IMG/VR virus record: IMGVR_UViG_2529293240_000017
DNA length: 11,141 nt
Strand: one strand, 5' to 3'
DNA from: a virus
Lineage: Duplodnaviria; Heunggongvirae; Uroviricota; Caudoviricetes
Shown: piece by piece, positions 3,274 through 3,477 of the stretch
How the letters are laid out: each line of letters begins with the position of its first letter
Numbering within the stretch: position 1 is the stretch's first letter
Program-made: the position numbers and the translations under genes
The notes under the pieces: generated by a model
The model's input: only the letters and a program-made list of their open reading frames with translations
What the model was told of the DNA's origin: nothing
Database searches by the model: none

Positions 3274-3316
3274 AAAAAGAACAAATGGTAGTGTCCGCTA
3301 TTGCCAGTACACCTCA
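2500..3316 (+). mobile_element. IS3-family (IS600-like) element, 3' portion, second copy; 64 bp longer at the IS2 junction than copy 1
   Basis: Homologous to 323-1076. The extra 2500-2563 reads in the OrfB frame as ...EPSDRKQSDERLKLEIKV before [10 protein letters not shown]. The right end ...CCAGTACACCTCA sits at about 3316, inside the holin gene. Confidence 0.65.
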
Positions 3317-3477
3317 GTCAGATATGTCAGCAGCCCAAACAGCAGACTCCCCAGCACGCCTATTGCCGCCCACTGAGACGGGGAAACCCTGTCCAGCAAC
3401 TGCAGGAACCAGTAGCCCGTTCCCACCGCTGACGTGGTGTATGACACACCTGTTGTGATTTTTTCCATCTGGTCCAT
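3298..3477 (-). pseudogene. S21-type class II holin (pinholin, EssD/EssQ-like), C-terminally truncated by the IS600-like end
   Basis: [54 protein letters not shown] matches phage 21 S / E. coli EssD-type holins from memory. The last five codons (EVYWQ) plus the stop are read from IS sequence. GGGAGA Shine-Dalgarno lies upstream of the ATG at 3477. Confidence 0.7.

Follow-up and report, generated by a model that had tools for sequence, protein, structure and literature searches.

The window (the whole stretch of DNA analyzed, 11,141 nucleotides) was found to hold what is very probably the fossil of a Qin-type prophage of Shigella flexneri, in which IS600 lies in the pinholin gene, an IS600-associated deletion reaches into ydfJ and leaves a non-lytic remnant, and later IS2 events cut and inverted what was left. 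Coordinates of the features discussed below are listed in Table 1.

Table 1. Features of the window, in order of position. Empty cell, nothing assigned.
Feature	Position	Strand	Basis or remark
Left part of third IS2, at contig end	1..322	-	Window position 1 is the end of contig AFOW01000019.1
Second IS600 3' fragment, nt 511-1264, cut by another IS2	323..1076	+	Sequence comparison
ydfV fragment, 93 bp (K-12 locus L019 positions 22164-22069)	1077..1169		blastn vs K-12
Complete IS2 adjoining truncated IS600	1170..2499	-	99.7% identical to K-12 'insertion sequence:IS2E'
IS600 3' fragment, roughly nt 448-1264 of 1264, with orfA and 5' orfB missing	2500..3316	+	blastn vs full-length S. flexneri IS600
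IS600 right terminal repeat in holin frame, giving (T)EVYWQ and TAG	3298..3316	-	Alignment to intact holin breaks here
Native holin part, codons 1-54 (MDQMEK...LLTYLT), with TMD1 and most of TMD2	3317..3477	-	DNA and protein identity to E. coli 042 holin; PF04971
Terminator-like hairpin and T run, ~40 nt upstream of holin start	3516..3544	-	Consensus scan only; conserved in E. coli 042 by alignment
53-aa hypothetical ORF, late-operon gene before holin	3627-3788	-	E. coli 042 order
DUF1737 gene, preceding holin	3785-3988	-	Pfam PF08410; order as E. coli 042
111-aa iraM-like gene	4233-4568	+	'anti-adapter protein IraM' in E. coli 042; precomputed PmrD-family match PF11183
tRNA-Arg(tct) and CAT-anticodon tRNA, between Q and lysis region	5480-5556, 5658-5733	-	ARAGORN
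Late-gene antiterminator Q	5910..6698	-	PF03589
rusA, DUF968/ydfU homologue, 92-aa ORF, rem, hokD, relE, relB, ydfV'	6713..9821	-	Pfam; K-12 Qin match
IS2 inserted in ydfV; contig continues into ydfJ' (K-12 locus position 7518), ydfI and onward	9822..11141	+	blastn, flank comparison

By nucleotide comparison, the window was identical at 11,141 of 11,141 bases, in reversed orientation, to a locus (L013) of assembly GCA_000217895.2 (AFOW01000019.1 positions 1-16698), which is Shigella flexneri J1713 in the strain table of PMC6397287. Position 1 of the window (L013 position 16698, record position 1) is the physical end of this draft contig and falls inside an IS2 copy; thus, the window alone is insufficient to establish the absence of endolysin and spanin genes, and related closed genomes were needed. 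The nearest of these was S. flexneri 3a J17B (CP100042, locus L012; strain name from PMC10732043), with 99.89% identity to window 323-11141. Loci L002-L018 extend at most ±10 kb from the holin remnant and do not represent whole genomes. Relative to closed J17B, five single-base deletions were detected in the window (at 1106, 2431, 2797, 8618 and 8773, several of them in A runs), and these are probably draft sequencing errors and not biology. The deletions split IS600 orfB (into ORFs of 146 and 81 aa) and rem (8400-8650); real decay of orfB, by the frameshift at ~2797, and of rem was considered at first but is now judged unlikely, as these single-base deletions occur in the draft and not in closed J17B. 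The IS2 at the contig end was also found to lack one A at window 92 (AGAGAATAA compared to AGAGAAATAA in other copies), which frameshifts its orfA remnant (1-276, minus strand) and could be either a real defect or a draft error.

The holin remnant is an ORF of 59 aa on the minus strand (window 3298-3477, with ATG at 3477 and TAG at 3300-3298). The deduced protein matched Pfam PF04971, 'Bacteriophage P21 holin S' (Phage_holin_2_1), at 83.3 bits (E 1.2e-23; cut-off 26 bits) over profile positions 1-54 of 64, and thus belongs to the class II holin family by a significant profile match; the intact orthologue of E. coli 042 scored 112.5 bits over positions 1-63. Residues 1-54 were identical (54/54 aa) to this orthologue, a 71-aa 'class II holin family protein' (L001 8947-9162). 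At the DNA level, the native part of the gene was identical to that of E. coli 042, and the 44 nt upstream differed at one base.

Homology to the E. coli 042 holin gene extends to ...CTGAC(T); from there on, the sequence of the window is GAGGTGTACTGGCAATAG (E-V-Y-W-Q-stop), which belongs to the right terminal repeat of IS600. By contrast, the intact E. coli 042 gene continues past this point as AACCTGTATTTCAAA (N-L-Y-F-K...), its 3' end at the breakpoint being GAC-TAACCTGTATTTCAAAATC.... The breakpoint lies at 3316/3317, and the T at 3316 is common to the IS end (TGAGG...) and to the native ACT codon. On the plus strand the IS600 end is ...CTATTGCCAGTACACCTCA, terminating at 3316, and the right end ...CCAGTACACCTCA was present at every copy compared. 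The fragment beside the holin was 99.3% identical to nt 444-1264 of the full-length S. flexneri copy, of which 817-821 bp remain, and it carries the terminal inverted repeat (TGAGGT...ACCTCA) of IS600, a member of the IS3 family. The full-length S. flexneri reference itself matched E. coli copies at ~99.7%, and these E. coli copies are named 'IS3-like element IS600 family transposase' by PGAP. IS600 is expected to generate a target duplication of 3 bp. A complete 1264-bp IS600 with orfA, orfB, both ends and such a duplication was not found in the window, where the element is cut by IS2 at 2499/2500.

The remnant was 68% identical over 59 aa to S of phage 21 (the reference sequence used matched Escherichia phage 21, OL657228, at 100%) and shares with this protein (S21-71/S21-68) a putative dual-start motif (Met1 and Met4), TMD1, the loop DxVSPSQW and TMD2. 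Compared to phage 21 S and other class II holins, the remnant ends after residue 54 of 71, with NLYFK-IREDRRKAARGE replaced by EVYWQ. Of the residues in the lost tail, NLYFKIREDRRKAARGE, 6 are basic and 3 are acidic; EVYWQ has 0 basic residues. The cut lies four residues before the end of TMD2, so that residues 36-54 of this segment are kept, and the truncation removes, in addition to the tail, Lys59 (K56 in S21-68 numbering), by which TMD2 is anchored on the cytoplasmic side of the membrane. Two TM segments followed by a basic cytoplasmic C-terminal tail were therefore not present in the remnant, which with the end of TMD2, Lys59 and the tail missing is a truncated family member (pseudogene) rather than an intact holin. 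At the N-terminus (MDQMEK, window 3466-3477, minus strand) both Met1 and Met4 are retained as in S21 (MKSMDK). The extra residues differ, being MDQ without Lys in the remnant and MKS in the S21-71 antiholin, such that Asp-Gln adds no positive charge. The Lys of the extra N-terminal residues confers antiholin behaviour in S21-71. The variant MDQMEK is the usual one among Stx-converting phages.

These results bear on a preliminary description of the locus, made from the window alone, in which an S21-type holin was reported to be truncated exactly at an IS600-like end. Both parts of that statement were borne out, the element being IS600 itself; alignment to intact holins, proposed there as a check, gave 54/54 aa with E. 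coli 042, 68% with phage 21 S and 69% with EssQ. The ATG, the coordinates and the peptide ...TYLT-EVYWQ-stop were likewise correct, but the native frame does not run to the end of TMD2 as had been described. Loss of the charged C-terminal tail was also confirmed, with the amendment that Lys59 is lost as well.

The exact 59-aa protein was listed in 1465 assembly-collection blocks and seen on at least 839 contigs. One concern was that the junction could be an assembly artefact in which contigs were mis-joined through repeats, as the source of the window is a draft contig with an end in IS2, and the five single-base deletions of the window compared to closed J17B resemble homopolymer errors. However, the same junction was recovered from many chromosomes that had been closed independently (CP100042, CP007037, LR213452, CP026765 and others), as well as from a representative genome of GTDB, by which the artefact is effectively refuted. 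By contrast, when 5,426 complete E. coli genomes were searched, none of the ranked records covered the IS600-holin junction, and each best match started exactly at 3316. More than 700 complete E. coli genomes were found to hold window 3316-4700 at ~99.5% identity, again with every alignment starting at 3316. A query of assembly contigs with the junction returned one match, 'E. coli ECMA0423' (4.44 Mb), in which the arrangement is that of S. flexneri locus L004. The junction is a clean lineage marker across S. flexneri phylogroups that is absent from the 5,426 complete E. coli genomes.

An intact orthologous prophage is present in E. coli 042 (NC_017626, 2.245-2.265 Mb), which is 99.4% identical to window 3316-8023 (4.7 kb) and encodes a holin identical through codon 54. 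The gene order in E. coli 042 is Q, two tRNAs, DUF3927, an iraM-like gene (opposite), DUF1737, a small ORF, holin, YdfR, lysozyme, lysis protein (Rz), HNH and terminase. In contrast to the remnant, E. coli 042 and similar prophages in >700 E. coli genomes have no IS600, a full 71-aa holin and an intact cassette. The opposite end of the remnant was found to resemble the Qin prophage of K-12, with 96.5% identity over 1.8 kb (the relBE-hokD-rem segment) and 86-96% identity across relB through ydfU by blastn. The order of K-12 Qin is relB, relE, hokD, rem, ydfU, Q, ..., essQ, ydfR, rrrQ, rzpQ/rzoQ, ..., nohA, stfQ, tfaQ, pinQ, ydfK, and it adjoins ydfJ, ydfI, ydfZ, rspR, ydfG and dcp. Like the remnant, K-12 Qin (EssQ-YdfR-RrrQ-RzpQ/RzoQ) occupies the site on the ydfJ side and has relB, relE, hokD, rem, ydfU and Q as neighbours; unlike the remnant, from which the lysis cassette and all genes beyond it have been deleted, K-12 Qin retains a full cassette as well as several tail genes. 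The late region of the remnant, from Q to holin, is of the E. coli 042/Stx-phage type and not of the K-12 type, and EssQ is 69% identical to the remnant protein. Based on the relB-ydfU match and the same chromosomal site, the remnant is a Qin-type prophage with a late region of the E. coli 042/Stx-phage type.

In five S. flexneri loci (L003, L006, L007, L009 and L011), the truncated holin gene is followed in order by a complete IS600, a 5'-truncated ydfJ, ydfI, ydfZ, rspR, ydfG and dcp. K-12 homology resumes at K-12 locus position 8021, 265 bp inside ydfJ, and relative to relB...holin neither order nor orientation differs from that of K-12 Qin (blastn). The Qin-type gene order relB-relE-hokD-rem-ydfU-Q-...-holin beside ydfJ-ydfI was thus recovered from K-12 annotation, blastn collinearity and Pfam content. 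The complete IS600 of L003 is flanked by GAC on the holin side and CCC on the ydfJ side, with no target-site duplication. Taken together, the collinearity with K-12 and the unrelated flanks of IS600 point to an IS-associated deletion, not to a simple insertion or an inversion. Measured on K-12 Qin, the interval deleted is equivalent to ~8.4 kb; on a full-length prophage, for example the one in E. coli 042, it would be much larger. The preliminary description had the lysis cassette removed by IS insertion or deletion; of this, the loss of the cassette stands, deletion is favored over simple insertion, and the loss extends far beyond the lysis genes.

The 3.3 kb downstream of the holin in the window consist only of IS600, IS2, the 93 bp of ydfV, IS600 and IS2, and no homologue of YdfR, lysozyme, Rz or Rz1 was detected in the window in any frame. 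In closed J17B, the 7.4 kb beyond the holin hold IS600, IS2, the ydfV fragment, IS600, ISSfl3 (IS66 family) and IS600, and nothing else. When the E. coli 042 YdfR, lysozyme, Rz, HNH and TerS proteins were used as tblastn queries against the window and loci L002-L018, no significant match was obtained (E at least 0.017). A tblastn search of the window, L012, L013 and L020 with K-12 RrrQ, RzpQ, RzoQ and YdfR likewise yielded background matches only. A 99-nt segment of E. coli 042 that spans the holin 3' end and the ydfR 5' end matched only E. coli 042 itself when compared by blastn-short to all fetched loci. Thus, Q and the late genes upstream of the holin are present, yet the remnant, unlike its orthologue in E. 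coli 042, does not head a lysis cassette, either in the window or in any of the related Shigella loci that were tested. The earlier claims that nothing downstream encodes an endolysin or spanin, and that the prophage is lysis-defective and cryptic, therefore held for the loci tested; for the former, the support came from the closed and long S. flexneri loci, as the window by itself stops at the contig end.

We considered whether IS600 may simply have inserted, with the distal half of the holin gene, ydfR, R and Rz not deleted but carried elsewhere by IS600/IS2 inversion. Rearrangement of this kind does occur at the locus: the remnant sits between inverted IS600 copies and flips between strains through them, both orientations being found in S. 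flexneri (in the five L003-type loci above, ydfJ' flanks the holin end, and in L002, L004, L005, L008 and L010 it flanks the relB end), an IS2-mediated inversion is apparent in the J1713 lineage, and displaced lysis genes could lie beyond the ±10 kb that the loci span. We nevertheless regard a simple insertion as very unlikely, since IS600 joins holin' straight to ydfJ' in native order and orientation, the signature of a deletion and not of an inversion, the IS600 flanks (GAC and CCC) show no common target duplication, and neither the holin 3' end in any fetched locus nor the lysis genes in any locus tested were found.

An IS600-associated deletion thus remains the preferred reading. In the proposed history, IS600 would have entered the pinholin gene of a Qin-type lambdoid prophage in S. 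flexneri between codons 54 and 55, and an IS600-associated deletion would then have removed everything up to the site 265 bp inside chromosomal ydfJ, through intramolecular transposition or through recombination of two IS600 copies in direct orientation. The losses would include the 3' end of the holin gene, ydfR, the lysozyme gene (presumably for an enzyme of the signal-anchor-release type), the Rz/Rz1 spanins, terminase, head and tail genes and the prophage end, and what is left is a hybrid ORF of 59 codons, with its stop codon within the terminal repeat of IS600. The order of insertion followed by deletion is read from the flanks only, and an intermediate with the insertion followed by the deletion was not found among the loci compared.

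With no endolysin or spanin left, the remnant cannot cause lysis. At most, its peptide may depolarize the membrane, and even this is doubtful. In a C-terminal truncation series of S21-68, the tail was found to be dispensable down to K56, and in a construct of 56 residues Arg was the sole functional substitute for K56; substitution by His or Glu much reduced function and hydrophobic residues allowed very limited function (bioRxiv 10.1101/2021.04.20.440580). Counted from Met4, the remnant by coincidence has exactly 56 residues, with Gln at the K56 position and Glu in place of N55 four residues earlier. The Gln at the K56 position, together with the Glu for Asn, suggests that pore formation by the 59-aa peptide is impaired or absent, as far as mutational data from phage 21 S apply to a homologue that is 68% identical.

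A different view is that the hybrid is a functional membrane-active peptide, a minimal pinholin serving as a toxin or depolarizing factor, kept by selection. From Met4 it has 56 aa, exactly as many as S21-56, the minimal construct that forms pores; TMD1 and the loop are preserved, as is the greater part of TMD2, the start codons are those of E. coli 042 with the upstream 44 nt one base different, and the ORF is identical on the at least 839 contigs noted above. However, selection cannot be read from identity within a young clonal lineage, and the intact E. coli gene does not differ from this DNA either. The Lys anchor, which in S21-56 only Arg can replace, is Gln in the hybrid, and a Glu is added at the membrane boundary. 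Moreover, late transcription needs Q, which has a nonsense mutation in J1713, and terminator-like hairpins lie upstream. A functional, selected peptide is accordingly judged very unlikely. That the ORF has been kept across S. flexneri as a domesticated, membrane-depolarizing mini-pinholin is even less to be expected; were it true, a mini-pinholin expressed from the late operon or by read-through could affect stress responses or phage exclusion.

The nonsense mutation in Q is a TGG to TGA change (W263*) at window 5910-5912 that shortens the protein to 262 aa, compared to 273 aa in E. coli 042 and other S. flexneri, by loss of the last 11 aa. It is shared with closed J17B and is thus a real, lineage-specific mutation. 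With W263* in Q and terminator-like hairpins (consensus matches only) before the holin, expression of the remnant is also predicted to be compromised in J1713.

The IS2 elements were found to record further rearrangement in the J1713/J17B lineage. The flanks of the IS2 at 1170-2499 share no target duplication, so this copy is recombinant. A 5-bp IS2 target duplication within ydfV, CTGGT, is split, with one half at 1165-1169 (as the reverse complement, at the end of the ydfV fragment) and the other at 9817-9821. The two halves adjoin two different IS2 copies that are inverted relative to one another (1170-2499, minus, and 9822-11141, plus), and neither IS2 has matching flanks. The ydfV fragment at 1077-1169 is likewise displaced and inverted relative to ydfV' at 9645-9821. 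The split duplication indicates an IS2-IS2 inversion of the whole segment 2500-9821. Judged from the flanking sequences, the simplest reconstruction would derive the J1713/J17B arrangement in three steps from an L003-like ancestor: insertion of IS2 in ydfV, a second IS2 insertion with an adjacent ~950-bp deletion that removed IS600 nt 1-447 and ydfJ' 8021-7518, and inversion of 2500-9821 between the two IS2 copies.

At the far end of the second IS600 fragment, the IS600/ydfV junction of J1713/J17B (window 1070-1085) reads ...ACCTCA, then AGCAACACTGAC (ACCCCA in the draft), and that of L003 (3485-3500) reads ...ACCTCA, then CTGAC. The junction on this side is 8 bp away from that of the other S. 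flexneri loci, and the holin/IS600 junction is identical in all. The 8-bp difference is explained either by two independent insertions or by an 8-bp adjacent deletion.

The locus is a case of ordinary IS-mediated prophage decay, in kind already known. Genome reduction in Shigella is driven by expansions of IS1, IS2, IS600 and other elements (Hawkey et al. 2020, PMC7373316), and the present locus is one instance of the same kind of process, in which IS insertion, IS-flanked deletion and IS-IS inversion lead to pseudogenes and prophage remnants. A literature search found no paper on the IS600-holin junction in the S. flexneri prophage. Entries for the exact 59-aa protein exist in UniProt and NCBI under the names 'Lysis protein S' (Q7UCH5_SHIFL) and 'MULTISPECIES: class II holin family protein [Shigella]', with its truncation unflagged. 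The significance of the locus is mostly one of annotation hygiene, as an IS-terminated fragment is carried as a lysis protein. The locus also provides a compact example of how IS600 and IS2 have reduced a lambdoid prophage to a small island with relBE, hokD, rusA, tRNAs and an iraM-like gene.

This island, from ydfV' to holin', is ~6.5-6.7 kb and is bracketed by IS elements, with the late and the early/integration regions missing. The position of the tRNAs, after Q and before the lysis region, is that seen in Stx-type lambdoid phages; the first is annotated as tRNA-Arg in E. coli 042 too, and the CAT-anticodon tRNA is called Met by ARAGORN and is annotated as tRNA-Ile in E. coli 042. The iraM-like gene, which has been kept in the remnant, is opposite in orientation inside the late region, and its 111-aa product had no Pfam match at E<=0.01 in a direct Pfam scan. 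Both hokD, a toxin gene, and the relBE toxin-antitoxin module (8867-9620, minus strand) are intact and kept in every S. flexneri remnant copy, and their retention is possibly the reason that this stretch of prophage has survived. The DUF968/ydfU homologue (7082-8053, minus strand) has lost 78 bp in frame at about window 8017-8023, between 7-bp direct repeats (GTTCCGG), by which the protein is shortened from 349 to 323 aa compared to the other S. flexneri loci.
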